From an uncultured Actinomycetes bacterium (lineage in GTDB: Bacteria > Actinomycetota > Acidimicrobiia > IMCC26256 > JACDBD01), in assembly GCA_963768605.1 (NCBI GenBank), contig CAVYIP010000007.1:44726-108725 (forward strand): a stretch of 64,000 bases of DNA, in the 5' to 3' direction. Each line of letters begins with the position of its first letter. Position 1 is the first letter of the stretch. Positions 1 to 64,000 of this stretch are shown in pieces. The translations under genes were made by a program, and so were the position numbers. The notes below the pieces were generated by a model that was given only the letters and a program-made list of their open reading frames with translations, had not been told where the DNA came from and did no database searches.

Positions 1-442
1 ACGACGCGCCTTGCGCAGCGGCGAGCGCGAGGTGGTTCCGCGGGTCAGCGACCTCGACGCGCTCGTCGCCTCGACGGCAGGGAAGATCGAGTTCGAGACG
101 CTCGACGACGGCCGCGAGGAGCAGGTGCTCGAGCGCATCGTCAAGGCGTCGGTGCTCGAGGTGTTCCGGGCCCGTACCCGACCCGAGCGCCTGGCGCGGC
201 TGGTGGCCGCGTTCGACGAGGGTGTCACGGTGAACACGGGCGAGGATGTCGCCGCGTCGGAGTACGCCGGGCTGCTCCCGAAGCTCGACGGCCTGCGCGA
301 TGCGCTCGCCGACCTCGGCGTGGGCGAGACGCCCGCCGGCGTCGCGTCCGCGGTCGAGTTCGTCCTCGAGGGACTCCATCTCTCCAAGCGCCTCAACAAG
401 GACGCCGTCGGCGGCAAGGCCACGTACCGCGGCCGGGGGTAG
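1..442 (+). CDS. AAA+ ATPase (ChlI/MoxR-like) C-terminal fragment; 5' end lies outside the window
   Basis: The ORF is open to the window edge and stops at 440-442. Its C-terminal helical segment (VLERIVKASVLEVFR ... AVEFVLEGLHLSKRLNKD) is typical of the ATPase that partners the YSRWDGTQ-type VWA protein at 2121-4136. Confidence 0.5.
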   Translation, partial: RRALRSGEREVVPRVSDLDALVASTAGKIEFETLDDGREEQVLERIVKASVLEVFRARTRPERLARLVAAFDEGVTVNTGEDVAASEYAGLLPKLDGLRDALADLGVGETPAGVASAVEFVLEGLHLSKRLNKDAVGGKATYRGRG

Positions 443-469
443 ACCACCGCAGCGCGGCACACTGGGAGT

Positions 470-1175
470 GTGAGCACGCGCCAGGCCGACATCGTCGACT
501 ACTACGCCGAGCTGGGAGTGGCCCCTGACGCCTCGCCGGCCGAGATCGGCTCCGCGTACCGCGCCCTGGCGAAGACGCTGCACCCGGATGCGAGGCCGAC
601 CGATCCCGCCGCCGACGACCGGTTCAAGCGCGTCGCAGCGGCATACCGGGTGCTCGCCAGCGTCGAGCGCCGTCGTGACTACGACGAGCGGCGGGCGCAC
701 GGGCTCGCGCCCGTTGCGGCCGCGGAGCGACCGGTCGCGACGACGCAAGCCGCGGCGCCGCCCAGCCGGCGCGGCGCCCGCTGGGCTGATTGCCGGCGGT
801 ATCGCGTGCCTCGTAGTCGGCGTCGCGGCGACGGCCCTGATCATCTCCTTGCAACGGCACGACGCCGACCTGCGCAGTCGCGGCACGCCCGCCACCGCGA
901 CGGTCGTGCTGGACGGCACCGAGCGGCGGCTCGAGTTCACGACCGCCACGGGCCAGACCGTCCACGCACCTGAGCCGGTGCGCACCGGCACAGGAGAGAA
1001 GCCGGTGGGTTCGCAGGTGCAGATCCGCTACGACCCCGATCACCCGACCGAGGTGATCACGAACGACGACAAGCTCGCCCGCGACATCACGCTCTGGATC
1101 GTGGCGGTGAAGCTGCTCGTCGTCGGCGCGTTCTTCGTCTGGTGGGGCGCGCGCCGCCTGCGCCGCCTCGCCTGA
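470..1175 (+). pseudogene. J-domain (DnaJ-like) protein with C-terminal DUF3592-type membrane domain; frame broken as assembled
   Basis: The N-terminus (DYYAELGV..AYRALAKTLHPD...RRDYDE) is in the frame of ORF 470-973. The TM and DUF3592-like part (LIAGGIACLVVGV...IRYDPDHP...LWIVAVKLLVV) is in ORF 588-1175. The frames switch around 740-790, in the +1 direction. Confidence 0.7.
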
Positions 1176-1187
1176 GCCACGCGCCGA

Positions 1188-5277: not shown

Positions 5278-6138
5278 TCAACGCGCTTCGAGCCGGGCCT
5301 CGATCGTCTGGTCGTCGTCGAGATTCGCGCGCCGGCGAAATGCCGGACCGCAGTCCTCGAGCACGGCCCGGGGGAGCAGCCCGACCAGCTCGATCCGATC
5401 CAGCTCCGCGCCCTCGGCGCGCGCCTGGCGCGCCACCTCGGCGCAGGCCTCCTCGAGCCCGGTGGTCTCGAGGTCGGTGAGGTTCAGCGAGACCTGCACC
5501 CGGCGACGTGAGGTGAGCTCGAAGCCGAGGGCGCGCACGCCGGGCAATCCGCCCCCGCTCTCGCGCACGTCGTGGGCGATGCGGCGCGCGAGGTCGACGT
5601 CGTCACGGTCGAGCTCGCAGTTGACGGCGACCAGGGCCGGGCGAGCTCCCACCGCCGTCGCTCCCAGCCGCGGGTGGGGCTCGGAGGGTCCGTAGTCGGG
5701 CATCCGGCGCGCGAACGCGTCGCGCCGCAGCCTCGGGAGCGGACGCTCCTCGGGGTCGGCCTCGCCGTACAGGAACGTCGGCACGTCCAGAGCGTCCGCC
5801 AACCAACCCGCGAAGTAGTGCGCGGTACGCACCGCGCTGGCCCGCGCCTCGGGCGTCCCCGAGAGCGCGACGAACGGGACGACGTCGAGTGCGCCCAGCC
5901 GCGGGTGCACGCCCTCGCGCCAGGAGGTGTCGACGTGTCGGGCGACCGCTTCCGCGAGCTGAACTGCGGCGCGCTCGACCGCCTCCGGGGGATCGCCGGC
6001 GAGTGTGAACACCGACCGGTTGTGGTCCGGATCGGCATGCACGTCGAGCAGGGGACCCCCACACGCGGTGGCGAGCCGATCGACGACGTCACGGCGTCGC
6101 CCTTCCGACACGTTCGGCACGCATTCGAGCACCCGCAC
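5278..6138 (-). CDS. ftcD: Glutamate formimidoyltransferase
   Basis: The N-terminus MRVLECVPNVSEGRR and the length (286 aa) match the formiminotransferase domain family. Confidence 0.8.
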   Translation of the reverse strand: MRVLECVPNVSEGRRRDVVDRLATACGGPLLDVHADPDHNRSVFTLAGDPPEAVERAAVQLAEAVARHVDTSWREGVHPRLGALDVVPFVALSGTPEARASAVRTAHYFAGWLADALDVPTFLYGEADPEERPLPRLRRDAFARRMPDYGPSEPHPRLGATAVGARPALVAVNCELDRDDVDLARRIAHDVRESGGGLPGVRALGFELTSRRRVQVSLNLTDLETTGLEEACAEVARQARAEGAELDRIELVGLLPRAVLEDCGPAFRRRANLDDDQTIEARLEAR

Positions 6139-6180
6139 AGGTTACGAAGCGGCGTGCTGCCGCACGTAGGCTCGGCAGTC

Positions 6181-7171
6181 GTGCGTGTCGGCCTCGCGCT
6201 TCCTCAATACGACTACTCGGTACCGGGTGAATCGCCGCTGCGGTGGGGCACCCTGCTCGAGCACGCGCAACGGGCCGAGGCGCTCGGCTTCGACTCGCTG
6301 TGGCTCTCGGACCACTTGTTCCTCGACATCGCCAAGTACGGCGGGACGGCCGAGCCCCACGGGATCTACGAGCCCCTCGTCTCCCTGGCCGCGCTGGCTC
6401 GCACCGTCACCCGTCCCCGCCTCGGCACGCTGGTCGCGTGCGAGGCGCTGCGGCCGGCGTCGGTCCTCGCCAAGGCCCTCGCCACGCTCGACCGGATCTG
6501 CGCCGGCCGGCTCGACGTCGGTCTCGGCGCAGGGTGGTACGCGCCCGAGTACGAGGCCGTCGGGCTGGCGTTCCCGCCGCCCGCTGAGCGACTGGACCGT
6601 CTGGCCGAGGCGGTCGAAGTCGTCCGCGGCCTGCTCGGTGGCGGGCCGCTCTCCTTCGACGGTCGCTATCACCGCGCCGCGGGCGCGGTGAACCGGCCGC
6701 CGGCGGTGCAGGAGCCGCGACCGCCGGTGTTCGTGGGCGGGAAGGGCGACCGGCTCATCCAGCTCGCGGTCGAGCACGCCGACGGCTGGAACACGTGTTG
6801 GGTGTGGACGCCCGACGCGTACCGGGATCGCCTCGACGTGGTCGAACGATCGTGCGACAAGGTCGGGCGCGATCCCGCCACCGTGTGGCGCTCGCTCGGC
6901 TTGTACGCGCTGGCCGGGGAGGACCGTGCCGACCTCGAGCGCCGGTTCGCCCGCATGCGTGACCTCATGCCGGCCGGCGTCGTCAACGAGACGCTGGACG
7001 AATGGCGCGCCGGCCGGCTGGTCGGGACCGTCGACGAGGTACGCGCCCAGCGCGACGAATGGGACGGCGCTCGGCGTCGAGACCCTCATCGTCGGGGCCG
7101 GCCCGCTGCCCTTCTCGGTCACCACACTCGACGACGTCGAGCTGCTCGCCCACGCGCTCCTCTCCTCCTGA
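6181..7171 (+). pseudogene. LLM class F420-dependent oxidoreductase; one frame break
   Basis: GTG at 6181 (VRVGLALPQY..), then GFDSLWLSDHL ... GLGAGW. The C-terminal ALGVETLIVGAGPLPF continues in the frame of ORF 6926-7171. The break is near 7060-7070 (+1). Confidence 0.8.
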
Positions 7172-7519: not shown

Positions 7520-8029
7520 ATGGCCGGCGGGGTCCCGACCTGGGAAGAAGTTGCCCGTGATCACGGGCGCTTCCTCTACAACGTCGCCTACCGCCTGGCC
7601 GGCAATGACAGCGACGCACAGGATCTCGTGCAGGAAGCGCTGCTGCGGGTCCGCAAGGGCCTGGAGCGCTACCAGCCCGGATCACTCGAAGGTTGGTTGG
7701 CCCGGATCGTGACGAACGTGTTCCTCGACGAGGTGCGACGGCGACGGCGACGTCCCGCCGACGCGCTCCCCGAAGACCCCGACTGGGTGCTCCCGCCCGC
7801 GCCCGCCGCCGACCAGGTCTTCACCGGCTTGTCCGATGACGTGCAGGCCGCGCTGGCGTCGCTGCCCGACGAGTTCCGCTCCGCCGTCGTCCTCTGCGAC
7901 GTCGCCGACCTGCCGTACGAGGAGATCGCCGAGTCGCTCGGCGTCCCGGTCGGGACCGTTCGATCACGGATCCACCGAGGCCGCCGGCTGCTGCGCGACG
8001 CACTCGTGAGCACAGGAGAGACGGCGTGA
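7520..8029 (+). CDS. sigE: ECF (sigma-70 family) RNA polymerase sigma factor, SigE-like
   Basis: Region 2 (DAQDLVQEALLRV..ERY..GSLEGWLARIVTNVFLDE) and region 4 (LPDEFRSAVVLCDV.DLPYEEIAESLGVPVGTVRSRIHRGR). ATG at 7520, with GTG 7517 as an alternative. It is followed by an anti-sigma gene with a 4-nt overlap. Confidence 0.8.
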   Translation: MAGGVPTWEEVARDHGRFLYNVAYRLAGNDSDAQDLVQEALLRVRKGLERYQPGSLEGWLARIVTNVFLDEVRRRRRRPADALPEDPDWVLPPAPAADQVFTGLSDDVQAALASLPDEFRSAVVLCDVADLPYEEIAESLGVPVGTVRSRIHRGRRLLRDALVSTGETA

Positions 8030-8473
8030 ACGGGCGTCCCGCTCCCGACGACCGGCTCTCCGCCTACCTCGACGGCGAGCTCGACGCTGCCGAGCGCGCC
8101 GATGTCGACGGCTACCTCGCCGAGTCGCCGGAGTGGCGCGCCGAACGCGACGCGGTCGCATACGCGCGCGACGCACTTCGCACCCTGCCCGTGCACGAGG
8201 CGCCGCCCGGCTTCTGGGAGGGTGTTCTCTCTCCGGAGTTGACCCGCGCCCGTGCGCCGACGCCGCTCACGGCTGCCGCGCCTCGTCGCAGCGGCCACTG
8301 CGGGCGTCGCCGTCGCCGCCGTCGTGATCGCGTCGCTCGTGATCCCGTCTCCGGATCGCGTCACGCCGCGCGTGCCTGCGCTCTCCGACTCGCACGCCGT
8401 GCGCACGTCCGTCTCCGACGAGCCCGTCAGCCAGCTGGCGGCCCTCAGCATGATCACTCCGTTCCGGCGATGA
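8026..8473 (+). pseudogene. Anti-sigma factor (RseA/zf-HC2-like, single TM); one frame break
   Basis: The N-terminus LSAYLDGELDAAERADVDGYLAESPEW is in the frame of ORF 8026. The TM part LVAAATAGVAVAAVVIASLVI is in ORF 8252-8473. The switch is around 8235-8290 (+1). Confidence 0.65.
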
Positions 8474-9510
8474 GCATGTGGTCGCCGCGGGGGCTGGCGC
8501 TGCTGGCGGGGGTCGCCGTGCTCGCCGGCCTGGCGCCTCTCGCCCTCTCGACAGAGCCGGCGGCGACGTCGCAGACGGGACCGGGCGTGCAGCTCCTCGA
8601 CGACGCCCGCCGGGCCGCGCAGGAGCAGGACTTCTCGGGCGTCCTCGAAGTGACGTGGTCGGACACTCGCGGTGAGCACAGCAGCGACGTGTTCGTCCGC
8701 AGCGCCAACGGCGTGCTCGCGCTGGGCGACCGGCCCCAGGTGATCGTCGAGGGCGCCCGCCGCTTCGTGCAGGGACCGGACGGGTGGCTGGCGGTCTGGA
8801 GCCAGGAGACCGCGCCGGAGCTGCCGCCTGCGTCCGACAAGTGGGTGTTGTCGGTCCGCGACGGCCCGACCGTCGCCGGCCGGCCGACGCAAGAGATCGA
8901 CGCCACCAACCGCCACGACAACCGCGTCCGCGAGCGGCTCTACCTCGACGAGTCGACGAACCTCCTCCTCCGGCGCGAGCAGCTCGACACCCGCGGGCGC
9001 ACGGTGCGCGCTGTCGGCTTCACGAGCATCGGCGAGCCCGCCGGTACGTTCGTCGGCGCGCTCCCGGCCGAAGCTCCGCACGCGCCGGCGCGCAGCACGA
9101 GCCGCCAGCCGCGCGTGCTCCGGGAGGTCGCGGCTCCGTTCCGCGCGCCCGGGACCGCCGGCGACCGGTTCCAGCTCGCCGGCCGGTACGACGAGGACCA
9201 CGACACGCTTCATCTCTTCTACAGCGACGGGCTCTTCAGCGTGTCGGTGTTCGAGCAGGAGGGCGACCTCGATCCCGCCGGCCTGCCCGCCGGGGCGGAG
9301 TCCCGCACGGTCGACGGGCGCGACGTCCGCCAGTACCACACGCCCGGCGGAGTGGTCATGGTGTGGCAATCAGGCGACGTCGTCTACACGACCGTGTCCG
9401 ATGCCCCCGTCGACCAGATCGACGACGTCGTCGCCGACTTCGGTCCGTCCGGATCACGCAACGCCCTCGACCGCGTCACCGACTTCGTCGTGGGGCCGTT
9501 CTCCTGGTAA
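8470..9510 (+). CDS. MucB/RseB-like sigma-E regulatory protein (secreted)
   Basis: ATG 8470 overlaps the upstream stop (ATGA). It has a signal-like LALLAGVAVLAGLAPLAL. The body and C-terminus (LAGRYDEDHDTLHLFYSDGLFSVSVFEQ) resemble the MucB_RseB family. Confidence 0.6.
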   Translation: MSMWSPRGLALLAGVAVLAGLAPLALSTEPAATSQTGPGVQLLDDARRAAQEQDFSGVLEVTWSDTRGEHSSDVFVRSANGVLALGDRPQVIVEGARRFVQGPDGWLAVWSQETAPELPPASDKWVLSVRDGPTVAGRPTQEIDATNRHDNRVRERLYLDESTNLLLRREQLDTRGRTVRAVGFTSIGEPAGTFVGALPAEAPHAPARSTSRQPRVLREVAAPFRAPGTAGDRFQLAGRYDEDHDTLHLFYSDGLFSVSVFEQEGDLDPAGLPAGAESRTVDGRDVRQYHTPGGVVMVWQSGDVVYTTVSDAPVDQIDDVVADFGPSGSRNALDRVTDFVVGPFSW

Positions 9511-11546: not shown

Positions 11547-12246
11547 CTAGTCGATCGACTCGTCGCGAACGCGGCGGGTGCTCGCCGGTCACCATGAAGC
11601 CGACGCGCTGCCCGATCGTGACGGCGTGGTCCGCGATCCGCTCGTAGTGCCGGCCCACCAGCGCGAGCTGCACGGCCAGGAGCACGTTGCCCTCGTCGTC
11701 GGCGCCCGGCCCGGATCCGGCGAGGATGTGCCGGAACAGGCTCTTGGTCAGGTCGTCCATCGTGTCGTCCATGTCGGCGAGCGCGAATGCCGCCGACGGG
11801 TCGGAGTCGGCGAACGCGTCGAGCGCGACTCGCGTCTGCGTGCCTGCCTGCTCGCCCATCCGCTGGATGATCCCCCGCAGCTTCGGGTCGAGGCTGTGCG
11901 GATAGAGGCGGCGAGTGGTCTTCGCGACGTTCACCATCAGGTCCGCCGACCGTTCGAGCTCGTGCACGATGCGCAACACGGAGACGACCGTCCGCAGGTC
12001 GGTCGCCATCGGCTGCTGGCGAGCGAGGAGCTGGTAGCAGCTGTCCTCGATCGAGTGGGTGAGGTCGTCGATGTCGTCGTCGTTCTCGATGACCTGCTCC
12101 GCGGCCGTGAGGTCGGCGTCGAGGAACGCCTGCGTGCCGGCGCCGATCGCCTCGGTCGTCAACGCGGCGAGCCGGATCACGTCGATCCGCAGCTCGTCGA
12201 GGGCGTCCTGGAAGCTCTTGCGGGCCTCGTTGGCGGTGTCGGTCAC
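11547..12246 (-). CDS. phoU: Phosphate signalling complex protein PhoU
   Basis: Two PhoU repeats (DDLTHSIEDSCYQLLARQQPMATDLR...ELERSADL; MDDLTKSLFRH...GRHYERIADHA). The listed ORF runs on to 11389 antisense to the neighbour. A +1-type break in the last ~10 codons would end it at TAG 11549-11547 (..RRVRDESID*), a normal PhoU length. Confidence 0.8.
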
Positions 12247-12305
12247 GGCGACATCATCCCATTCCGGCGCATGTGCCTCACTCGTCGACGCTCGACCTTC
12301 GGATC

Positions 12306-12521: not shown

Positions 12522-13624
12522 ATGAAGCGCATCACTGGCTACCTGCGGTGGCTGGTACCCACGGCCTTGATCGTCGGCCTGGTTCCGTTGGGCGGAGCGA
12601 TCGCGAGTGCAGCTGATGCTCCTGCTCAAGGCGGCTCGGCGACGCTCAACGCGTCGGGTGCCACCTTCCCGCAGGCGTACTACGAAGAAGTGATCGGGGC
12701 CTTCAAGCAGAAGGACTCGAACGTCACCATCAACTACGCCGGCGGTGGCTCGGGCAAGGGCCGCCAGGACTTCGCCGACCAGGTCGTCGACTTCGCCGGC
12801 TCGGACGCGCCGTACAAGCCCGAGGACGCGCGCCGGCGTCAAGGGCGGCACGTTCTTCTACTTCCCGACGGTGGCGGCGCCCATCACGGTGTCGTACAAC
12901 CTCAAGGGCGTGAAGAAGCTGCAGCTCTCCGCCGACACGATCGCCAAGATCTTCTCGGGTGCGATCAAGACCTGGGACGACGCCGCGATCAAGGCGGAGA
13001 ACACGGGCGTGAAGCTGCCGTCCACCGCGATCACCGTGGTGCACCGGGCTGACAGCTCGGGGACGACGGAGAACTTCACGAAGTTCCTCACCGCGGCGGC
13101 ACCGACGTGCGTGGACGCTCGGCTCCGGCTCGACCGTGAGCTGGCCGGCCGACACGCAGGCGGGCCAGGGCAACCCGGGCGTCGGTCAGATCGTGAAGAG
13201 CACCGACGGCGCCATCGGCTACGTCGACTTCTCCGACGCCAAGGCGCTGAAGCTCCAGTTCGCGAAGATCAAGAACAAGGACGGCAAGTACGTGGCGCCG
13301 ACGCGTGAAGGCGACCACGGCGGCCGTCGACAAGGCGCAGGTCAAGGCCGACCTGACGTACGACCCGCTCAACGCGAGCGGCGCGAGTGCCTACCCGATC
13401 GCGGCGCCGACCTGGTTGCTCGTGTACCAGAACCAGAGCGACGCGGCGAAGGGCACGGCGATCAAGAGCTTCCTGAACTACATCTACGGGGACGGCCAGA
13501 AGCTGGCCCCGGAGGTGGACTACGCACCACTGCCCGAAGAGCCTGCTCGACAAGGCCAAGGCCCAGGTCAAGCAGGTCGGGGGCCGCGTCGAGCTCCACG
13601 GGCGCGAGCACGTCCACCACGTAG
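12522..13624 (+). pseudogene. pstS: Phosphate ABC transporter substrate-binding protein PstS; about 5 frame breaks
   Basis: PstS segments walk through frames 0>1>2>0>1>2: ATFPQAYY..NYAGGGSGKGRQDF; GGTFFYFPTVAAPITVSYN...HRADSSGTTENFT; SWPADTQAGQGNPGV..GAIGYVDFS; AYPIAAPTWLLVY. Breaks are near 12830, 13105, 13303, 13536 and 13580 (a G5 run). Confidence 0.9.
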
Positions 13625-13638
13625 CATCCGGCGAACAC

Positions 13639-13668
13639 GAGGGGCGGGCGATTCGTCGCCCGCCCCTC
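13639..13668 (+). terminator. Perfect 13-bp stem / TTCG-loop hairpin between pstS and pstC
   Basis: GAGGGGCGGGCGA-TTCG-TCGCCCGCCCCTC. The position matches the partial-terminator or mRNA-stabiliser hairpins known between pstS and pstC. Confidence 0.6.
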
Positions 13669-13690: not shown

Positions 13691-14672
13691 ATGGCGACCG
13701 ACGCTCCTGCCCTTCCCAAGAGCTTCACGAAGGGGACCCGACCGCCGGGGATCATCGCCGACCGGGGCTTCCGGATCCTCGCCCTGCTCGCGGCGCTGAT
13801 GGTCCTCGTGATCCTCGGCGCTGATCGCGCATCTCGACGACGCGCGAGGCGCTGCCGTGGTTCCGCGAAGAGGGCCTCGGCATCTTCACCGACAACTGGG
13901 ACCCGGCCAAGAACAGCTTCGGCGCGCTGGGCCTGATCTACGGCACGCTGCTGGTGTCGGCCATCGCAGTGCTCCTCTCGCTCCCGATCAGCATCGGCAT
14001 CGCGTTGTTCGTCACCGACGTCGCGCCGCAACGCCTGCGCCGGCCGATCGTGTACACGGTCGACCTCCTCGCCGCGATCCCGTCGGTCGTCTACGGGCTG
14101 TGGGCGCTCCTCGTCCTCGCCGCGCCGCTGGCGAACCTGTTCGAGACAGTGTCGGACGCGACCGCCGGCATCCCGGTCCTCAAAACGGTGTTCGGCGAAC
14201 CCCAGCGCGTCGGGCAAGAGCTTCATGACCGCCGGGATCATCGTCGCGATCATGATCACGCCGATCATCACCTCGATCACCCGTGAGGTGTTCGCGACCG
14301 TCCCGGCGTCGCAGAAGGAGGCCGCGCTCGCGCTCGGCGCCACCCGCTGGGAGATGATCCGGGGCGCGGTGTTCCCGCACAGCCGCAGCGGCATGGTCGC
14401 CGGCACGATGATCGGCCTCGGCCGGGCGATGGGCGAGACGATCGCGATCGCCCTGGTGATCGGATCGTCGCAGCGGGTGACGGCGAACATCCTCGGGCCC
14501 GGCGACACGCTGGCGAGCGTCATCGCCAACCAGTTCGGCGAGGCGAGCGGCACCCACCGCGCCGCGCTCATCGGGTGCGGCGTCGTGCTGTTCGTCATCA
14601 CGATCCTGATCAGCATGGCGGCGCGGGCGGTCGTCGGCCAGGACCGACCGACGGTCGGCGGGCGCCGCATGA
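13691..14672 (+). pseudogene. pstC: Phosphate ABC transporter permease PstC; about 4 frame breaks
   Basis: RILALLAALMVLVILG / REALPWFREEGLGIF..FGALGLIYGT..DLLAAIPSVVYGLW / SFMTAGIIVAIMITPIITSITREV..ALGATRWE lie in successive frames. Breaks are near 13820-13831 (two), 14215 and 14638. The inferred stop is the TGA of an ATGA overlap with pstA. Confidence 0.88.
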
Positions 14673-15575
14673 CCGCGCCGGCGGTGCCCCTCACGCAATC
14701 GACTCGCAAGGGCCGGCGCGAGCTCAAGAACGCCGTCGCGACCGGCCTGATCGTGGCCTCGTTCGTGATCGCGCTCATCCCGCTGACGCTCATCGTCATC
14801 TACGTCGTCCAGGCCGGGCGCGTCGTCGTTCAGCTGGAGCTTCCTGACCGAGGACCTTCCCTTCAGCAACCGGCGAGAGGGCGGCGGGATCTACCCCGCC
14901 ATCGTCGGGACCCTCGTGATCACCGGGACCGCGACGCGCGATGGCCGTACCGCTGGGGATCCTCGGCGGCATCTACCTGAACGAGTACGGCGGGCACGGG
15001 ATCTTCGCCCGGTTCGTCCGCTTCCTGGCCGAGGTCATGACCGGCGTGCCGTCGATCGTGATGGGCCTGTTCATCTACACGATCTGGGTCCTGCCCCGGA
15101 AGCAGGCGGGTCTCAGCGGGTTCGCCGGTGCGCTCGCGCTCGGTTGCCTGATGCTCCCGATCGTGATCCGGACCACCGAGGAGATCCTCAAGCTCGTCCC
15201 CGACGAGCTCCGCGAGGGGAGCTACGCGCTGGGGACCCGCAAGGCGCAGACGATCCGCACGGGTCGTGTTCCCGAACGCCGCCCCCGGGATCATCAGCGG
15301 CGCCCTGCTCGGCGTCGCCCGTGTGGCGGGCGAGACCGCGCCCCTGCTGTTCACGATCGGCATCGTGTCGACGGCGAACTTCAACGTCTTCGACGGGCCC
15401 AACACGGCGTTGCCGCCGCAGATCTACATCGAACGCCGGGACCTTCGGCGGCTTCCCCGCCGCACAGGACCGGGCGTGGGGCGCGGCCCTGGCGCTCATC
15501 CTGCTCGTCTTCCTGTTCACGCTGGTCGCCCGCATCGTCACGGCCATCTACACCCGCCGTTCGGCGGCGGTTTGA
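14669..15575 (+). pseudogene. pstA: Phosphate ABC transporter permease PstA; about 4 frame breaks
   Basis: Segments SWSFLTEDLPFSN..IYPAIVGTL / MAVPLGILGGIYLNEYG..EGSYALGTRK / VFPNAAPGIISGALLGVARVAGETAPLLFT / AWGAALALILLVF step +1 each time, near 14825, 14935, 15258 and 15428. Confidence 0.88.
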
Positions 15576-15590
15576 CCCTTGGAGCCGGAA

Positions 15591-23772: not shown

Positions 23773-23797
23773 AGCGACCGATATCGTTGCTTCGGCC

Positions 23798-32170: not shown

Positions 32171-32184
32171 CGCTCGCCGGATCC

Positions 32185-37670: not shown

Positions 37671-37728
37671 CCCCAGACCATAGGGAGCCGCGACCGTCGA
37701 CCGGGGTGGTGCATGGCAGGCTCTGTCG

Positions 37729-38851: not shown

Positions 38852-38870
38852 TCCCAATACAGTTGCGCCG

Positions 38871-45430: not shown

Positions 45431-45437
45431 CGGCTCC

Positions 45438-48522: not shown

Positions 48523-48534
48523 CGGGGCTCCTTC

Positions 48535-50359: not shown

Positions 50360-51513
50360 GACGCGGGTCGGTGATCGGCGAGGGCTGGCCGGTCGGTGGG
50401 CTCAGGCGGGGTCGGCTGCGGCATGGGCGTCGACGAGGTGATGTTGGCGGGCTTCCCTCCGTACACGTGCACGGGGTCACCGCGGTGCACGAGATCGTGG
50501 AAGTACTCGGAGATGTGCATCGGGATCCGCACGCAGCCGTGCGAAGCAGGCGTGGTCGGCACCGAGTCGTAGCCGTGCACGGCGATGCCCTTGTTGAAGT
50601 AATACGGGTTATACAGCTGTCCGAGCGGTGACTTGTCCCAACCGGCGCGGAACTCGGTGTACGTGAAGTCGCCGGACGGCGTGTTGGCGTCCTCGCACAC
50701 GTGACTGGTCGGGTTCTCACGGGGCGTGTCGTAGCAGTAGTTCTCGCCCGAGCCCGACGACATGGTCGTGATGAGCTTCGGCTGGTAGTTCTCGTACAGG
50801 GTCAGCGTCTGTCCCGTGATGTCGACCTCGGTCCGGTTCGGCTCCGGCGGCGCCGCCATCGGGTCCTTGAACCGGAAGAAGCTGAGCGCGAACACGTCGG
50901 CGTCGTTCATGCGACCGCTCGGGTACCCGCCGCCGTACTTCTGGAGCGTCTGCGCCGCGTAGACGGTCTTCTGGTCGTAGACGCCGTCGACCGGGCCCGG
51001 ATCGAAGCGGATGTCGGCCATCCGCTGCTCGTACGCCTGCACCTCGGGGCCCTGCGCGCCGAGCCCGATCACGCCACCCGGCACCGGGGGCAGCGACGCC
51101 CACGGCGGCTGGATGATCGTCGTGGGCGGAAGGGTCGTGGTCGTCGGCGCCGGGGCCGTGGTCGTCGTCGGCGCCGGAGCGGTGGTCGTCGTCGGCTGGG
51201 CGCGCTTCGTGGTCTTTTCGTCGCGCAGCGCCGAGCCGGCGGCGGCGATGCCCGACACGAGGAGCGCCGCGATCACCAACGAGACCAGCACGGGGGGTCG
51301 AAAAACCTGCCTCAGGGTCGCTCCTGTCGCCGCTCGGAAGTGTGCGAATCGTACCGGGGCGGGTACGCCGGCCCGCGCACTCGGGATTCCGAGGGCCCTG
51401 CCCGGCGGTCGTCCAGGACGAGACTTGACCGCCCGGTCAAGGGTAATAGGGTGACGCCGGTTCCAGGAGCCGGACCGGGGGGTCGCCGTGCGGTTCTTCT
51501 CGTTCCACCTCAT
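50341..51513 (-). CDS. L,D-transpeptidase (YkuD) with peptidoglycan-binding-like domain; start uncertain
   Basis: PG_binding-like GAQGPEVQAYEQRMADIRFDPGPVDGVYD and the YkuD catalytic HGCVRIP. There is a TM near LVSLVIAALLVSGIAAAG, so the true start is probably around 51300-51400. Confidence 0.8.
   Translation of the reverse strand: MRWNEKNRTATPRSGSWNRRHPITLDRAVKSRPGRPPGRALGIPSARAGVPAPVRFAHFRAATGATLRQVFRPPVLVSLVIAALLVSGIAAAGSALRDEKTTKRAQPTTTTAPAPTTTTAPAPTTTTLPPTTIIQPPWASLPPVPGGVIGLGAQGPEVQAYEQRMADIRFDPGPVDGVYDQKTVYAAQTLQKYGGGYPSGRMNDADVFALSFFRFKDPMAAPPEPNRTEVDITGQTLTLYENYQPKLITTMSSGSGENYCYDTPRENPTSHVCEDANTPSGDFTYTEFRAGWDKSPLGQLYNPYYFNKGIAVHGYDSVPTTPASHGCVRIPMHISEYFHDLVHRGDPVHVYGGKPANITSSTPMPQPTPPEPTDRPALADHRPASRSSTG
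51131..51200. repeat. Tandem ~24-27 bp repeat, about 2.5 copies, encoding the TTTAPAP linker of the L,D-transpeptidase
   Basis: gtggtcgtcggcgccggggcc / gtggtcgtcgtcggcgccggagcg / gtggtcgtcgtcggc. Confidence 0.6.
51424..51441. promoter_or_regulatory. Perfect palindrome CTTGACCG-CC-CGGTCAAG upstream of the LLM/hydrolase operon
   Basis: 8-bp arms, ~45 bp upstream of GTG 51488, followed by TAATAG. Confidence 0.3.
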
Positions 51514-52659
51514 GCCCTACACGCAGCTGTCGCCCGACTACGACGGCCCGGCCTGGGTGACGTGCCCCAACGAGCTGTACGACCCGCAGCTCGGCCACGA
51601 GCTCTACAACACCTACCTCGACGAGCTCGTCTACGCCGAGGAGGTCGGGTTCGACGGCGTGTGCGTGAACGAGCACCACCAGAACGCCTACGGCAACATG
51701 CCGTCCCCGAACCTCATCGCTTCGATCCTCGCCCGGCAGACGAGCCGGATCCGGATCGCCGTCGTCGGCAACGCGCTGCCGCTCTACGACCCGCCGACGC
51801 GCGTCGCCGAGGAGTTCGCCATGATCGACGTGATCAGCGGCGGGCGCCTCATCGCCGGCATGGTCGTCGGCGGCGGGCCCGGAGTACTACTCGTTCTCGG
51901 TGAACCCCGCGCACGCCCGGGAGCGCTTCCAGGAGGCGCACGACCTCATCACGAAGGCGTGGACGACGCCGGGCCCGTTCGAGTGGGTGAGCAAGCACTA
52001 CCGCATCCGGTACGTGAACCCATGGCCCCGTCCGATCCAGCAGCCGCATCCGGAGATCTGGATCCCGGGCGCGGGCTCGATCGAGACGATGGAGTTCGTC
52101 GCCCGCAACCGCTACGCGTACATGGGCATCCCGTACTTCCACCTCGACGTGTTCAAGCGGTACTTCTCGATGTTCCGCGACGCGTGCGAGTCCGAGGGCT
52201 ACGAGGCCGACCCGCTCCAGGCGGGATGGCTCGTGCCCGATCTACGTCGCCGAGACCGACGAGCAGGCCCGGCGCGAGTACGAGGAGCACCTCTGGTACT
52301 TCGTGAAGCGGCTGCTGCCGGGGATCACGATCCAGCCGCCCGGGTACACGTCGGTGCGGTCGCTCGCCAGCATCATGAAGGCGGCCGGCACCTTCATGCT
52401 CAACGTGGAGACGTGGGAACAGATCGTCGACGGCCGCTACGCGATCGTCGGCTCGCCCGAAACCGTCACGGAGCAGCTCGTCGACGCGCTGAGTGCGTTG
52501 GGGACGGGCAACCTGCTCGGCTTGTTCCAGCTCGGCAGCCTGCCCGACCATCTCACGCGCAAGAACATGGCTCTGTTCGCGGAGCAGGTCATGCCGAAGC
52601 TGCGCGCCGAGTTCCCGGAGGGCAAGCCGGTGTACCGGCCGCAGGCGGCGGTGGCGTAG
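51488..52659 (+). pseudogene. LLM class flavin-dependent oxidoreductase; 2 frame breaks
   Basis: MRFFSFHLMPY...GVCVNEHHQNAYG...GGRLIAGMVVGGGP / NPAHARERFQEAHDLITKAWT...IWIPGAGS / KRLLPGI...AIVGSPETV lie in three frames. Breaks are near 51885 and 52235. Confidence 0.85.
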
Positions 52660-56923: not shown

Positions 56924-57700
56924 CCGCCGACCTCCGCGGTGCGGAAGGCGTCGAAACCCTCGCGCTCGAGATTGTCGGCGAGCTCGCGGCCGCCGGAGGC
57001 GACGATGCGCCCGCCGAGCAGGATGTGCACCGCGTCGGGCGTGAGGTGCTCGAGGATCCGCCGGTAGTGCGTGATGAGCAGGATCCCGAGCTCCGGCCGC
57101 GCCTCGCGGACCGCGTCGATGCCGCGCGGCGACGACGCCGAGCGCGTCGATGTCGAGACCGGAGTCGGTCTCGTCGAGCACGGCGAAATCGGGCTCCATC
57201 ACCGCCATCTGGAGGATCTCGTTGCGCTTCTTCTCACCACCCGAGAACCCCTCGTTGAGGTATCGCTCGATGAACCGGGAGTCCATGCCGAGGCGCTTCG
57301 CCCAGTCCAGGACCGCCATTCGGACCTCGAGCACCGAGAAGTCGTCGATGCCCTTCCGGGCCGACATCGCCTGACGCAGGAAGTTCAGCACGCTCACCCC
57401 GGGGATCTCCTCGGGGTGCTGGAAGCCGAGGAACAGCCCCCGGCTGGCGCGCTCGTTGGTCGACAGGGCGGTGACGTCCTCGCCCTCGAACAGGATCCGC
57501 CCCGCCGTCACCTCGTAGGCGGGGTTCCCGAGGAGCGTCGCCGCCAGGGTCGACTTGCCCGAGCCGTTCGGGCCCATGAGGGCATGGACCTCGCCGGCGG
57601 GCACGGCGAGCGACACTCCCTGGAGAATCTCCTTGCCCTCGACCGCGACGTGGAGATCGTCGATCTCGAGCACGGGGTCGGGGTTCGAATCCGAGGCCAT
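56920..57700 (-). pseudogene. sufC: Fe-S cluster assembly ATPase SufC (copy 2); one frame break
   Basis: GPNGSGKST, GLFLGFQHPEEIPGV, NEGFSGGEKKRNEILQM and LDETDSGLDIDAL. After an extra base near 57125 the C-terminus (RGIDAVRE..LLITHY..GGRIVASGG) continues one frame off and ends at TGA 56922-56920. Confidence 0.9.
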
Positions 57701-57705
57701 GGCCC

Positions 57706-58791: not shown

Positions 58792-59725
58792 CTATGTACG
58801 AACGGATACTGGGACCGCACGGGCAAGGCATTGCTTCACCTGTGCGACGCCGTAGGCGGCTTCTTCCGAAGAGCTCGCGACCGGTTGCAGATGGAACGTG
58901 CGGACGCCGGCCTCGACGTACGGCACGAGCGCAGCGGCGATGTCCTCGGGCGTTCCCGCCGGGCTGTAGCGGTCGAGGGCGTCGAACGGCATGCCGTAGA
59001 AGCGCTCCATCGCAGGGGCGAGCCTGGCGCGGCCGTCCTCGACGGTGGGCCCGAAGCCGCACCACAGCTCGAGCGAGTGTCGCCATGCGACGTCCTCGCG
59101 GCCGGCGCTCTCGGCGTGCTCGGCGATGCGCGCGATGGACTCGGCGCAGCGCCGCGGGGAGGAGAACACAGCGGTCCACCCGTCACCGAGCGTCGCGGCC
59201 CGCACGGAGCGCAGCGTCGCTCTTGCCGCCGACGATCAGGGGAACCCACGGATCCGGGGCCGGCAACACCTGCACGTCTTGCAGACGGAAGAAGTCGCCG
59301 TCGAGCGTGACCGACTCGCCGGCAAGAAGCCGGCGCAACACGTACAGCGACTCCGTGGCGCGGCGACCGCGCGTGCGCATGTCGACACCGCAGCTCTCGA
59401 CCTCACGCGGGTCTTCGCCCGCGATCCCGACGCCGAAGGTGAGCCGGCCCGGCGCGAAATGCGCGAGCGTCGCCACCTGCCGGGCGACGGCGACGGGATG
59501 GCGTAGCGGCAACTGGTAGACGCCCACGTACAAGCCGATCGTGGGGTCGAGACCGGCATACGTTGCGACCGTGGTCAAGCCGTCGACGCCGTATCCGCCT
59601 TGGAAGCACACGTGGTCGGTGCTCCCGACGAAGTCGAGGCCGGCGGCCGCCGCGATCGCCACGCGATCGCGCGCGTCCTCATTCAGCGTCTCGACCGTGA
59701 GGATCCCGACGCGGATATCGCTCAA
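58792..59725 (-). pseudogene. LLM class F420-dependent oxidoreductase; one frame break
   Basis: ORF 59183-59725 (..GLDFVGSTDHV...FGVGIAGE...LIVGGKSDAAL) continues in ORF 58792-59205 (RAATLGDGW...GTPEDIAAAL). The break is near 59200. Confidence 0.8.
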
Positions 59726-59860
59726 GCTTCCGTCCTTGCCACCCGGGGGGCCGGACGGCTGCTATGCGACCTTGCGGGTGGACAGTTGACCCGAGACCAT
59801 CAACGGTCCGATGGACCATTGGGTCTGTAGACCCCCAAACCCTAACGAACGTTACGGGCG

Positions 59861-60891
59861 TCAGGCAGGGAGCCGAAAGAGACAGCGCGAAGTCGCCGCC
59901 GGGGTCGGTCCACCAGGCAGCAACGGCGAGGCCGGCGGCGGCAAGCTCCGCCTCGACCCGCTCACGGCGGAACTTGGCGCTGATCTCCGTGCGCATCTCC
60001 TCGCCGTCGGCAAACTCGACCCGCAGATCGAGCTCGCGCACGCGCACCGTTTGTGCGCCTTGCGACCGGAGGCGCATTTCGATCCACTCGTCCGCCGGGT
60101 TCCACCGCGCGATGTGCGTGAAGCGTTCCGGCGCGAAGTCGGCCGCGAGCTCCCGATTCAGCACGGAGAGGACGTTGCGGTTGAACGCCGCCGTCACCCC
60201 GGCGGAGTCGTCGTACGCGGCTTCCAGCCGGCGGGGGTCCTTGACGAGGTCGGTGCCGAGCAGGAGCGCGTCGTCCGGCGCGAGCCCGGCCGCGATGCTC
60301 CGGTAGAAGCGCGCCCGGCCGTCCGGGTCGAGGTTGCCGATCGTGCTGCCGAGGAACGCCACGAGGCGCGTGCCGCCCGTGGGCAGGCGGTCGAGGTGGC
60401 GCTCGAAGTCGCCGACGACGGCGTGCACGTCGACGCCGGCGTACTCGGCCTCGATCGCGCTTGCCGCGTCGCGCAGGGTCGGCTCGCTGACGTCGAACGG
60501 AACGAACCGCCGCAGCGAACCGTGCGCCGACAGCGCGTCCAGTAGCAGCCGCGTCTTCTCCGACGTGCCCGAGCCCAGCTCGACGAGCGTGTCCGCGGAC
60601 GTGCGCGCCGCGATATCGCCGGCGTGCCCGGCGAGGATCACGCGCTCGGTACGCGTCGGGTAGTACTCCGGCAGCCGAGTGATCTCGTCGAAGAGCAGGC
60701 AGCCTTCCTCGTCGTAGAACCACTTCGGCGGCAGGACCTTCGGGCTCGCGGTGAGCCCGCCGCGCGCGTCGGCACGCAGCGCGGCGGTGAGGTCGTCGGG
60801 CCCGAGGTGGACGTCGACGCGAGACGGCGATGAGGTGGGGGAGATGGCGGACCTCTCGATCAGAACGGGCGGACTTCGAGCTTGTCGTCAC
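59861..60891 (-). pseudogene. egtD: Histidine N-alpha-methyltransferase EgtD; start and stop both displaced from the main frame
   Basis: [47 protein letters not shown] and [14 protein letters not shown] match EgtD. The main frame has no ATG/GTG/TTG upstream of the conserved N-terminus and no stop until 59679. GTG 60891 and TGA 59863-59861 each become in-frame with one +1 step. Confidence 0.82.
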
Positions 60892-61609
60892 CGAGCTCGA
60901 CGACGGAGCCGTCGTCGACGACCGCCCAGCTCGGGTCGTCGTCGTACGGCTCGGACGCGATCACGACCGCCCCGGTGAGCTGGCGATCGTCGAGCACGAA
61001 GAGCGAGTTTCGGCACGCAGTGGCCGCGACCCGCTCACCGTCGGTCAGCAGGAAGTTCAGGCGCGCCGTCGTGAGCTCGTCGACGAGTCCGACGACGGAG
61101 ACCAAGGCCTCGGCGGGCGGCGCGCCGGCGTCGAGACGGTCCAGCACGAGCGCGAACAAGAGCTCGGAGTCCGTCGCGCCCGCCATCGCGTGCACACGCG
61201 TCTCGCTGACCTTGCGCCGCAGCTCCCGGCCGACGCCGGTGCTGAATCCCGGCACGAACCCGTTGTGCGAGAAGAGCCACGGGCCGTCCGTGAACGGCGG
61301 GGTGCACGTCTCCTCGACCGCCATGCCCGGTGAGGCCGATCGCACCGCGGCGAGAACGGCGTTCGAGCTCACGAGGCCGGCGATGCTCGCGAACGAGGGG
61401 TCGGCCCAGATCTGACGCGTCGTGCGGTAGCGAGCGGGCTCGGCCCGCTTGTCGCGGTCGTACCAGCCGACACCGAACCCGTCGGCGTTGATCGTCCCGT
61501 GGGTCTGGTAGCGCGGCGCGAACGCTTGTTGCAGGAGCGAGTGCTCCGGCTTGATGATCAGCTTCTCGAGCGTGACCGAAGGTCCGACGTAGGCGAGGTG
61601 GCGGCACAT
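60860..61609 (-). CDS. egtC: Ergothioneine biosynthesis amidohydrolase EgtC (class II glutamine amidotransferase fold)
   Basis: The N-terminus is MCRHLAY (nucleophile Cys2), with ..[10 protein letters not shown].. and ..LFSHNG.. Intact, 249 aa. Confidence 0.88.
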
Positions 61610-61615
61610 GTCGGT

Positions 61616-62824
61616 CTAGGCGTCGGCCGCGCAGCGGAAGCCGGCGAAGATCTGCCGGCGGATCGGATAGTCCCAGTTCCGGAACGTGGCGCGACGCACG
61701 CTGTCGTCGCTCGCCCACGATCCGCCCCGCAGCACTTTGTACTCGGGGCCGAAGAACACCTCCGAGTACTCGCGGTACGGGAACGACACGAAGCCCGGGT
61801 ACCCGGCGAAGTCGGTGGCCGTCCACTCCCATACGTCGCCGACCATCTGCTGCGGCCCATCGGGCTCGCCGTCGCGCGCCGCCGCCGTCTCCCATTCCGC
61901 CTCGGTCGGGAGACGGGCGCCGCGCCACGTGGCGAACGCCTCCGCCTCGTGCCAGCAGACGTGCTGGACCGGCTCGTCGAGCGGCAGCTCCTCCCGCCGA
62001 CCGAAGCGACGGCGCGACCAGTCGCCGCCCCCTTCGCGCCTCCAGAACTGCGGTGCCTCGACCGCCGCATCCTGACGCCAGTCCCACCCCGCGGCGCTCC
62101 ACAGCCGTGCGTCGCCGTAGCCGCCGTCCTCGACGAAGGCGAGGTACTGGCCGTTCGTGACCGGCGTGCGGTCGATCCGGAACGGCGGCATCTCGACCGC
62201 GTGCCGAGGACGTTCGTTGTCGTACACCCACGCGTGCTCGTCCGTGCCGATCGCGTACGTCCCTCCGTCGATCGCCACGTTTTCCGGGACGCCGGACGGG
62301 GGAGCGCCCGGTTCGCGGCCGAGAACGGGCGTCGGGTGCCACCCGTCGGCATCGGGATGGGCGAAGTTCTCCATGAGCTGGATGGTGGCGAGCATCGTCT
62401 CGTCGTGCTGGTGCTCGTGCTGGACGACCATTCCGTACACGAAGCCGTCGCGCACCAGCGGATCGTCGCCGTCGAGATCGATCGTCGCCAGCGCGTCGAG
62501 CACGCGCTTGCGCACGCCGGCGACGAAGGCGCGAGCTTCCGGCGGTCCCAGGATCGGCAGTGACGGGCGGTCCCGGCGCGGGTGCTTGAACGCGTCGTAG
62601 ACGTCGTCGAAGAGCTCATTGGTCGGGGCGGCGCCCACGACGTTGCGCAGCAGCCACAGCTCTTCGTAATGGCCGATGTGCGCGAGGTCCCAGACGAGGG
62701 GCGACATCAGCGGAGAGACCTGGTCGACGAGGTCGGTGTCGGCGATCGGCGCGAGGAGCCCGAGCGTGCGCGCCCGCGCGCCCTCGAGCCCGGCCTCGAC
62801 GCGGCTGGTGGTGTCGACGGTCAC
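61616..62824 (-). CDS. egtB: Ergothioneine biosynthesis sulfoxide synthase EgtB (DinB_2 plus FGE-sulfatase domains)
   Basis: The GTG at 62824 overlaps the egtA stop. Motifs are LVWDLAHIGHYEELW, VVQHEHQHDET, and the C-terminal GDVWEWT...RGGSW. Confidence 0.92.
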   Translation of the reverse strand: MTVDTTSRVEAGLEGARARTLGLLAPIADTDLVDQVSPLMSPLVWDLAHIGHYEELWLLRNVVGAAPTNELFDDVYDAFKHPRRDRPSLPILGPPEARAFVAGVRKRVLDALATIDLDGDDPLVRDGFVYGMVVQHEHQHDETMLATIQLMENFAHPDADGWHPTPVLGREPGAPPSGVPENVAIDGGTYAIGTDEHAWVYDNERPRHAVEMPPFRIDRTPVTNGQYLAFVEDGGYGDARLWSAAGWDWRQDAAVEAPQFWRREGGGDWSRRRFGRREELPLDEPVQHVCWHEAEAFATWRGARLPTEAEWETAAARDGEPDGPQQMVGDVWEWTATDFAGYPGFVSFPYREYSEVFFGPEYKVLRGGSWASDDSVRRATFRNWDYPIRRQIFAGFRCAADA

Positions 62825-64000
62825 GCCCACGTCGCCGCCGCGAACTGGTCGGGCTCGGGGATCAGCGTCCCGTCGTCCTGCCACGCGTCGAGTCGGTCGT
62901 CGGCGGGGCAACGGCCGCGGTCCACGTAGCGGTCGACGAACGCCTCGACCGCCAGCACGGTGGTCGCGTCGGTGCCGAGGCGCACCATCGCCTGCAGCGC
63001 GACGTCGAACGCGTCCCGGGCGGCACCGGCGAGATCGGGATGGCCGAGGCCGTGGCGGGCGGCGTCGAGCCAGCGCCCACGCGTGGGTGCGATCGCGTCC
63101 GCGGCGGCCTCGGCCGCCGTGTCGTCGCACACGAGCGTGGTGGAGACGGCTACGGCGGCGCGCCACCACGGGTCGGGAAGCGAGTCGATCATCCGCATCT
63201 CGAGCCAGCCGCGCGGCCGCACGGGTGGGAACAGCGTCGTGAAGTGGTACTCGACGTCGTCGAGGGTCGGGAAGCCGAGCTCGTGGCCGTCCGCGATCCA
63301 GTCGCCGAGCGTCAGCGGCTCGAGGATGGGCACGTAGCGGGACTCGTCCCGGCGGATGAACATCACGCGCGCCGCGAGCGCGTAGTCGGTCCACTGCCGC
63401 ACCGGGTCGGGCTCGCCGTTGCCGTCGGCGGCGGTGGTGCGGCACTCGTCGACGTCGGTCCAGACCGCCAACCGGCGCGAGCGCCACCCGCTGGGCGCGC
63501 CATCCGACAGCGGCGAGTTGGCGAACGCGGCGGCGAGCAGGGGGCCGGCGTCGTGGGCGCGGTGCCAGCGCCGGGCGGCGTCTTCGGGGGTCGGCCCGAG
63601 GTCGACGTTCACCTGCACGGCGGCGGTCGATCGCATCATCGTGCGACCGGCGGCGCACTGGGCGTCGAAGTAGGCCTCCATCGCCTCGTAGCGGGGCGAG
63701 TCGACGCAGCGGGCCCGGGCGGGGCCGGGATCGAGGCCGAGCCCGACCAGGCCGACGCCGTGGTCCGCGAGGGCGGCGGTCAGCGCGGCGGCGTCGGCGG
63801 CGATGGACGCGCACGCGGGGCCGATGCCGCGCAGCGGCGGCGAGCTCAGCTCGACCTGGCCGCCGGGCTCGAAGGTGAGGCGGCTGCCGGCGGGAAGCTC
63901 GGCACCCGCCTCACCCACGACCTCGGGCCGTACCGGTTCGGTCGGGTCGGCCAGGCAGACGGCCAGCCACTCGATCTCGACGCCGACCCGCCCCGAGGGC
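62821..64000 (-). CDS. egtA: Glutamate-cysteine ligase family protein EgtA; 5' end beyond the window
   Basis: The GCS2-type body is (FEPGGQVELSS...STAAVQVNVD...RMFIRR..) and the frame stays open upstream of the listed Met to the window end. Position is directly upstream of egtB. Confidence 0.82.
   Translation of the reverse strand, partial: PSGRVGVEIEWLAVCLADPTEPVRPEVVGEAGAELPAGSRLTFEPGGQVELSSPPLRGIGPACASIAADAAALTAALADHGVGLVGLGLDPGPARARCVDSPRYEAMEAYFDAQCAAGRTMMRSTAAVQVNVDLGPTPEDAARRWHRAHDAGPLLAAAFANSPLSDGAPSGWRSRRLAVWTDVDECRTTAADGNGEPDPVRQWTDYALAARVMFIRRDESRYVPILEPLTLGDWIADGHELGFPTLDDVEYHFTTLFPPVRPRGWLEMRMIDSLPDPWWRAAVAVSTTLVCDDTAAEAAADAIAPTRGRWLDAARHGLGHPDLAGAARDAFDVALQAMVRLGTDATTVLAVEAFVDRYVDRGRCPADDRLDAWQDDGTLIPEPDQFAAATWA

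Follow-up and report, generated by a model that had tools for sequence, protein, structure and literature searches.

The window that we have analyzed, a stretch of 64 kb from a contig of uncultured soil Acidimicrobiia, contains many genes which are divided among several frames, according to a codon-usage Viterbi frame model. Are these genes broken in the organism, or only in the assembled sequence? An earlier note had counted about 50 frame switches in about 28 genes, practically all with the sign of one extra base, and had attributed them to an insertion-biased consensus error. Our results agree with this proposal. The frame breaks are not a real biological feature, and the genes are intact in real organisms. 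Judging from sequence comparisons, the extra bases are very probably consensus errors of a metagenome assembly in which different strains have been collapsed, often with two strain alleles in tandem.

Number and sign of the frame breaks

About 60 single extra bases are found in the window, against four single missing bases (our own tally). The ratio of insertions to deletions is about 15:1, with about one spurious extra base per kb of consensus. About 53 of the extra bases are within 26 genes, which sustains the earlier count, and about seven more are in non-coding DNA (Table 1). Essential genes and non-coding DNA are affected alike, pstB, sufD and ppk1 among them. The non-coding share of the insertions is about 7/60, and about 7% of the window is non-coding by the frame model. 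Gene by gene, the numbers coincide with those suggested previously: five in pstS and ppk1, four in pstA, three in the P450 and UPF0182 genes, two in the DivIVA and CHAD genes, and one in both the second sufC copy and the luciferase-like monooxygenase (LLM) gene at 58.8–59.7 kb.

Some of the proposed breaks correspond to natural features. Eight of nine positions suggested for checking are real (12830, 13106, 13302, 15933, 16130, 21301, 22902 and 57127). The ninth, 35047 in mreB, shows no indel when compared with relatives, and the mreB start is a natural CTG start. Among the genes cited as indispensable, sufD and pstB are affected, but mreB is not. Two exceptions to the uniform sign had been mentioned: the one near 33170 is real, with one base missing at 33155/6, but that at 19408 is no frame break and reflects a natural boundary between genes. 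The Nudix/SixA junction is a natural CTG start. Two of the three claimed non-coding defects, an extra C in the palindrome at 54612–54644 and a PHO spacing of 12 at 12411, are natural, to judge from the alignments: relatives have the same asymmetry and the same spacing, with no indel. The third position, 50340, falls in a strain-variable stretch. Natural CTG starts and stop/start overlaps should be discarded in scans for frame breaks, prior to counting.

Table 1. Single-base insertions and deletions in the window. Further sites found with metagenome contigs are marked m.
Feature	Position (strand)	Extra bases	Missing bases	Comparison
DnaJ/DUF3592 gene	468..1172 (+)	788/789		Absent in 3/3 references; L091 has A, L092 and L093 have G, window GA
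LLM-1	6030..7165 (+)	7066		Absent in 2/2 references; Viterbi step +0 to +1
Non-coding, between tatA and sigma-factor gene		7469		Absent in 2/2 references
Anti-sigma factor gene	8026..8475 (+)	8256/8257		3/3 references; alleles C and G, window GC
phoU	11560..12258 (-)	11569 (abolishes stop)		Absent at three reference loci from two independent contigs; ORF restored
pstS	12522..13626 (+)	12830, 13106, 13302, 13536, ~13585 (m)		L087, L088, L091; metagenome contigs leave out 1; single ORF after repair
pstS-pstC spacer	13636..13655	13636, 13655/6		13636: L088 alone; 13655: 2/2 references, tandem GT allele pattern
pstC	13691..14690 (+)	13816, 13829, 14195, 14639		2/2 references each; ORF restored
pstA	14690..15575 (+)	14827, 14936, 15259 (m), 15429		ORF restored
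Non-coding, directly beyond pstA stop		15578		
pstB	15590..16507 (+)	~15680 (m), 15723, 15933, 16130, 16145		ORF restored
SenX3-like histidine kinase	16510..17680 (+)	17220/1		3/3 references; L090 (Illumina, JGI) has G, others C, window GC; ORF restored
CYTH-CHAD gene	19860..21358 (-)	20337, 21301		ORF restored
ppk1	21356..23500 (-)	21779, 22716, 22902, 23060, 23340		L087, L088; ORF restored
MFS transporter	23790..25210 (+)	25162 (close to 3' end)		2/2 references; ORF restored
Quinone-oxidoreductase-like gene	28789..29830 (-)	~29252 (m)		Viterbi frame step; 1 left out at 29251, 29252, 29253 in three runs
Epimerase-like gene	31187..32200 (+)	32125 (m), 32134 (m) (abolish stop)		One metagenome contig; removal regains stop
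AhbA/B-like (NirD/L) gene	32201..33300 (-)	32757 (m)	33155/6	Extra base 3 runs; missing base 4 runs, L082 likewise -1 at 33158
LLM-2	36116..36995 (+)	36338 (m), 36369 (m)		Three runs each, L081, Viterbi steps
PDZ/Lon_C protease gene	37721..38818 (+)	~38329		L081, L082, metagenome contigs
DivIVA gene	38869..40711 (+)	~39748, ~39871 (m)		Net +2 shift within low-complexity repeat; +4 at 39748 against L081 and L082; run X25 contig without 10+1 bases; whole (646–651 aa) in L082 and L083
Non-coding			40817, 51315, 54344	
UPF0182 gene	40906..43854 (+)	41983, ~43041 (4 = 3+1), 43631		4/4 references, including Illumina contigs L084 and L086; protein-level frame chain 1>2>3>1
sufD	45430..46730 (+)	46079/80		5/5 references; L085 has G, others C, window CG
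TetR-family gene	47868..48526 (-)	~47877-47880 (abolishes stop)		L085; removal regains stop
Cytochrome P450 gene	48570..49857 (+)	48720, 48775 (4 = 3+1), 49179		L082, L085
LLM-3	51459..52656 (+)	51881, 52236		L081, L082; protein chain to Illumina MAG L001, 87–89% identity over three frames
Second sufC copy	56924..57703 (-)	57127/8 (m)		Window CG
LLM-4	58832..59740 (-)	~59205 (m)		L094, run X3
egtD 3' end and spacer beyond	59745..60820 (-)	59872 (m; abolishes stop), 59825 (m), 59811 (m), 59745 (m)		Stop regained at 318 aa once 59872 is removed

Comparison with related strains

The references are related strains, 90–99% identical to the window and not the same clone, with only two to five reference strains per site. 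By nucleotide alignment to near-identical contigs (95–99% identity), we have counted the sites where each covering reference (at least two independent ones) lacks exactly one window base. In 44,175 bp there are 41 window-specific +1 sites and a single -1 site. This split has a binomial probability of about 1e-11 (our own arithmetic), and the uniform sign claimed earlier is thus confirmed.

The extra bases are found in the window alone, and are absent from L084 (98.6% identical), L085, L086, L089, L090, L092, L093 and L094, and also from the Logan Illumina contigs of eight runs. Illumina metagenome contigs with 93–96% identity or better leave out one base at the predicted sites and show almost nothing else. 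In Illumina-derived contigs from 95–99% identical populations, the genes are whole and the extra bases are missing. For example, pstS, pstC, pstA, pstB, ppk1, sufD and the UPF0182, P450 and TetR genes are intact in relatives, whose orthologues are unbroken, in a single frame, at every site.

Other assemblies have private bases of their own. An example is L081, a long-read-style contig of a related strain (ENA, with a "contig_" name), which has 20 extra and four missing private bases, and fragmented genes. L082 has six extra bases against one missing. No private extra bases are found in five Illumina contigs (L083–L086 and L093), and L092 has four, three of them within a strain-variable stretch of 4.2 kb.

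Every ORF tested was restored when the extra bases were removed. Deletion of 32 bases gives nine single ORFs (phoU, pstS, pstC, pstA, pstB, histidine kinase, CHAD, ppk1 and MFS), and stops are regained in three further genes (TetR, egtD and epimerase). Four genes without a stop had been thought to need one step each, which is the case for phoU, TetR and egtD, but the epimerase gene needs the removal of two bases. The intact relatives, the private bases, the sign bias of the siblings, the ORF repair and an insertion frequency in non-coding DNA no lower than in coding DNA all support a consensus error instead of biology.

Natural gene decay is deletion-biased and of mixed sign. It is very improbable that the window represents real mutations, in a lineage with massive, recent, insertion-only pseudogenization: About 60 one-base insertions against four deletions are unlike natural decay, and pstSCAB, ppk1 and sufD are affected, with up to five insertions per gene. 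Every fragment retains its full codon bias and protein identity, none of the 95–99% identical populations has the extra bases, and the sibling assembly carries other private insertions. Programmed ribosomal frameshifts or transcriptional slippage have a practically negligible probability. We have found no slippery motif common to the insertion sites, as many as five shifts in succession would be required in several genes, and the orthologues, unbroken at the same positions, refute such shifts.

Strain alleles at the insertion sites

The earlier note had suggested that the sign and context of indels should be tabulated against the closest complete genome. Compared with the related contigs, the indels are strongly insertion-biased and mostly outside homopolymers: The inserted base is unlike both neighbours in 29/39 cases, while random insertion would place 51% beside an identical base. 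The longest homopolymer run involved is 3. On these figures, we have rejected the homopolymer-length error that is classical for a Nanopore or HiFi consensus.

Many insertions in the window consist of the two alleles of a strain SNP in tandem. Of the 41 sites, 14 have either X or Y in the references where the window reads XY; only 1.78 such sites would be expected by chance (Poisson P about 7e-9). Metagenome contigs reveal the same pattern at no fewer than five additional sites. The five ppk1 sites are the sole indels of this gene in four Illumina metagenomes, and their placement alternates between neighbouring positions: The gap switches at 21778/9, 22715/6, 22902/3 and 23339/40. In the second sufC copy there are two haplotype contigs, one without c (57127) and the other without g (57128). 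Both are found in three of four runs, and a single haplotype in the fourth. The 14 tandem sites point to a consensus over mixed strains. At about two thirds of the sites a second allele is not seen among the available references, and since there are only 2–5 reference strains per site, some of these may be plain random insertion errors.

The insertions are not evenly distributed: They accumulate in regions of high strain divergence, the pst island above all. The pst island has 44–130 mismatches and 5–8 insertions per kb, against about 10 mismatches and 0–1 insertions per kb in its flanks.

With regard to the platform and to the software step involved, we infer that the contig most likely comes from long error-prone reads of mixed, closely related strains. 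Where these differ in a SNP or a small haplotype block, both alleles would be written in succession (X/Y becoming XY) during consensus building or polishing, which would add one base and shift the reading frame. Two alleles written in tandem would account for the uniform +1 sign and for the position of most insertions outside homopolymers. The inserted bases are rich in G/C, which may be due to the fact that G<->C are the commonest strain SNPs here, mostly, we assume, in third codon positions. A collapsed-strain consensus would also explain why insertions are clustered in the pst island, where the strains vary, why coding and non-coding DNA are equally affected, and why the siblings have different private sets.

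It is unlikely that generic random insertion errors, in a low-coverage and insufficiently polished long-read consensus with no strain mixture, are the explanation. The many sites with no known second allele and the sign bias shared by sibling contigs would agree with them, and raw PacBio CLR errors are mostly insertions (proovframe preprint, bioRxiv 10.1101/2021.08.23.457338). Nevertheless, such errors do not predict tandem alleles, either at the 14 sites (1.8 expected) or at those, at least five, where the pattern recurs in metagenome contigs. The clustering in the pst island would require a separate cause, for example a local drop in coverage. We know of no mutational mechanism for the tandem-allele composition, which also argues against real mutations. 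A real insertion-only process, which would turn mismatched heteroduplexes of inter-strain recombination into tandem XY and would recently have disabled dozens of genes, is extremely improbable.

Significance and comparison with known systems

The extra bases have no biological consequence. Nevertheless, the window contig and its public siblings (the ENA contig behind L081) put truncated or chimeric proteins into databases, and such contigs lower completeness estimates. The tandem-allele signature may serve as a simple, reference-free diagnostic of collapsed-strain consensus errors.

Pseudogene-rich decaying genomes, such as Mycobacterium leprae, also present many broken actinobacterial genes, important ones included. 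The lesions of natural decay are of several types (deletions, insertions, nonsense mutations, larger losses) and are shared among isolates. In the window, on the other hand, almost all lesions are +1; they belong to a single assembly and are equally frequent in non-coding DNA. Genome-decay pseudogenes were rejected on the sign and private character of these lesions. Programmed frameshifting (+1 in prfB, -1 in dnaX) also changes the frame within a gene. Programmed sites are conserved, motif-dependent and found once per gene, whereas the breaks in the window have none of these features.

Residual indels which cause frameshifts in long-read genome and metagenome assemblies are well documented (PMC9262707; bioRxiv 10.1101/2021.08.23.457338). 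The window resembles the indel errors of long-read-only assemblies (PMC9262707; 10.1101/2021.08.23.457338; Kastor, PMC12007338), where genes are fragmented by single-base consensus indels and are whole in relatives and short-read assemblies, and where removal of single bases restores the frame. Low coverage and heterogeneity of the population aggravate such errors. The classical long-read error affects homopolymer length, often as Nanopore deletions, whereas insertions in the window predominate and are mostly outside homopolymers. Unlike base-calling errors, at least one third of the sites in the window correspond to two SNP alleles in tandem.

Extra bases and repair of reading frames

The window has a G+C content of about 70%, and the SufB it encodes has 87% identity or less to those of GTDB species representatives, the closest being soil Acidimicrobiia MAGs. 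Near-identical populations were located in public assemblies by exact-protein look-ups. These references include Illumina contigs assembled with SPAdes, MEGAHIT or at JGI (L084, L085, L086, L089, L090, L092 and L093; L084 is 98.6% identical to the window in nucleotides) and long ENA contigs with Flye-style 'contig_' names (L081, L082, L087/L091 and L088; assemblies ERZ25039533, ERZ25039536 and ERZ25039591).

Under a Viterbi model of codon usage over six coding frames, many genes fall into several consecutive frames, and pstS is visibly dispersed across four ORFs. A tblastn search with all stop-to-stop ORFs of relatives was overwhelmed by shadow-frame matches in this 70% GC DNA, with few clean frame chains (UPF0182, the luciferase-like monooxygenase LLM-3, sufD and the second sufC). 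For this reason we used nucleotide alignment with 14 close contigs instead, keeping a site if all covering references agreed and at least two contigs were independent. Over the 44,175 covered bases, the window is exactly one base longer at 41 sites and one base shorter at a single site. Logan contigs from Illumina soil metagenomes, which also reach parts of the window without reference contigs, confirm the aligned sites; the best runs cover 31–54% of the 31-letter words of the window. In ppk1 and CHAD, the six predicted sites are the sole indels in four metagenomes. The tally is about 53 extra bases across 26 genes plus about 7 in non-coding DNA, which is also affected, and four single missing bases.

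The many frame breaks described in the earlier note, nearly all equivalent to one extra base, are thus borne out. Its step counts agree gene by gene (pstS 5, pstA 4, P450 3, UPF0182 3, DivIVA 2, ppk1 5, CHAD 2), and so does one of its two exceptions, near 33170, where one base is missing from the window at 33155/6. Another proposed defect does not hold: the PHO unit spacing at 12411 has no indel against three references and one metagenome contig. The extra C proposed in repeat copy B at 50340 is at most a candidate, as relatives differ there by multi-base indels.

Once the 32 extra bases at 11.5–25.3 kb are removed, nine genes become single ORFs with proper ends (phoU, pstS, pstC, pstA, pstB, histidine kinase, CHAD, ppk1 and MFS). 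Four genes were said to reach a stop after one step each. This is correct for phoU, and TetR and egtD recover their stops once one base is deleted; the epimerase needs one or two deletions. Relatives share none of the window's extra bases, and their genes are whole: pstS (365–366 aa), pstC (325), pstA (300), pstB (302), ppk1 (712), UPF0182 (977–982), sufD (432) and P450 (422). The window contains two suf clusters, so the broken sufC is the second copy.

Features of the window (positions along the window unless stated)
Feature	Position	Observation
Extra bases, pst region		Metagenome contigs: only single-base 'left out 1' gaps, at predicted places
Extra bases, 28.3–33.4 kb	~29252, 32125, 32134, 32757	Logan metagenome contigs
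Extra bases, 36–41 kb	36338, 36369, 38329, 39871	Logan metagenome contigs
Extra base, 56.9–57.4 kb	57127/8	Logan metagenome contigs
Extra bases, 59.2–64 kb	~59205, 59745, 59811, 59825, 59872	Logan metagenome contigs
Missing base, coding	33155	
Missing bases, non-coding	40817, 51315, 54344	
Alternating gap positions	21778/9, 22715/6, 22902/3, 23339/40	Closer metagenomes
Macro-domain gene 3' end and adjacent spacer	4130–4310	Many small indels of both signs among near-identical strains
phoU-pstSCAB island	12000–17000	Much more strain-divergent than flanks
IS481-family transposase	L087 2876–3805	Inserted adjoining phoU in strain L087
Nudix TGA stop (-)	19410–19408	Overlaps next start
SixA-like CTG start (-)	19411–19409	GGAGG 7 nt upstream (19408–19425)
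moaE TGA stop	35040–35042	
In-frame CTG	35049–35051	Two codons after moaE stop
DivIVA repeat	39500–39900	Low-complexity Pro/Asn/Arg (…PNPNRNRNPNRNANREPEP…); length differs by 3–34 bases between strains
First suf cluster	44021–47853	sufB-sufD-Rieske-sufC
First sufC	47040–47853	Intact
Imperfect palindrome	54612–54644	TGACCAGGGTGTGA…TCACCCCTGGTCA, between divergent genes
Second suf cluster	55180–57703	Second sufC-sufS-sufU
Ergothioneine cluster	59880–64000	egtD, egtC, egtB, start of egtA; intact

Sibling assemblies

Errors of this type are also found in L081 (ENA ERZ25039536 contig_48176), from a strain 94% identical, whose UPF0182 and sufD genes are fragmented (692 + 310 aa and 122 + 85 + 68 aa, respectively). 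Its private single-base indels are 20 extra and 4 missing, or 12 and 2 under stricter rules. In contrast, five Illumina contigs (L083–L086 and L093) have no private extra bases; L092 has four, three of them inside a strain-variable 4.2 kb stretch. With L081 as reference, eight extra bases were implied at 36.3–37.0 kb, but metagenome contigs back only 36338 and 36369, so the others are defects of L081 itself. Assemblies like this one place truncated proteins in public protein collections.

Sequence context and clustering

The inserted bases (n = 39) are G in 19 cases, C in 13, A in 5 and T in 2. An identical base would adjoin 51% of random insertions; 29 of the 39 are unlike either neighbour, which excludes a homopolymer-length error. 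About 27 insertions lie within the 3.4 kb pst island, where strain divergence reaches 44–130 mismatches per kb; the flanking DNA has about 10. No indels were found at 60–64 kb against four metagenomes, which shows that error density is very uneven across the window.

Among the 41 robust sites, 14 show a SNP, X or Y, between reference strains and both alleles in tandem, XY, in the window; 1.78 such sites are expected by chance (Poisson P ~7e-9). Gap placement in the closer metagenomes alternates between neighbouring positions at four sites. The window reads cg at 57127/8, where one haplotype bubble contig is without the c and another without the g; both occur together in three of the four runs.

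The divergence of the phoU-pstSCAB island suggests allele exchange or recombination. The indels near the Macro-domain gene look like natural variation, distinct from the extra-base artefact.

Natural gene starts and a palindrome

The earlier note listed mreB as broken, but it is not: the window runs collinear with L081 and L082 at this gene. From the sequence, the in-frame CTG appears to be the mreB start; it is equally distant from the DLAIDLGTANT motif in nine relatives (including L001, L002, L005, L006, L008, L081 and L082). Because of this CTG start, gene callers shorten MreB to 306 aa, a protein without the phosphate-binding motif.

The other exception, at 19408, reflects a natural overlap (CTGA) of the Nudix gene with that of a SixA-like histidine phosphatase. 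The junction sequence is unchanged in four relatives, including the Illumina contigs L089 and L090. Gene callers begin the phosphatase too late (125 aa), and its RHA catalytic motif is lost. This arrangement mirrors mycobacterial MutT1, a fused Nudix/His-phosphatase adjoining ppk1.

The palindrome had been credited with an extra C, but spanning Illumina contigs have no indel there despite the one-base bulge. A repeat search over it gave no match, since its arms differ by this bulge. Folding and sequence reading give a hairpin of -29 kcal/mol (z -2.5), which may be an operator or terminator-like element.

Origin of the extra bases

The extra bases are an assembly artefact and not a biological feature, as indicated by the private sites, the whole genes in relatives, the errors of L081, the contrast with Illumina contigs and the changes in non-coding DNA. 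This supports the interpretation in the earlier note, to which the tandem alleles add a likely mechanism. No criterion of natural pseudogenisation or of programmed frameshifting fits the extra bases, and there is hardly any chance that the extra bases are real in the organism.

A collapsed-strain consensus error fits the pattern. A consensus or polishing step on mixed-strain reads most likely kept both alleles. This would account for the clustering of the insertions, their uniform +1 sign and G/C bias, and the separate private errors of each assembly. The G/C bias would follow from the commonest strain SNPs, which are G<->C changes.

Frameshifts in long-read assemblies are documented (PMC9262707; bioRxiv 10.1101/2021.08.23.457338), and raw PacBio CLR errors are mostly insertions (bioRxiv 10.1101/2021.08.23.457338). 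The errors in the window belong with the indels and frameshifts that arise as errors in metagenome assemblies of long reads, although they differ in kind from the classical homopolymer-type errors of long reads.
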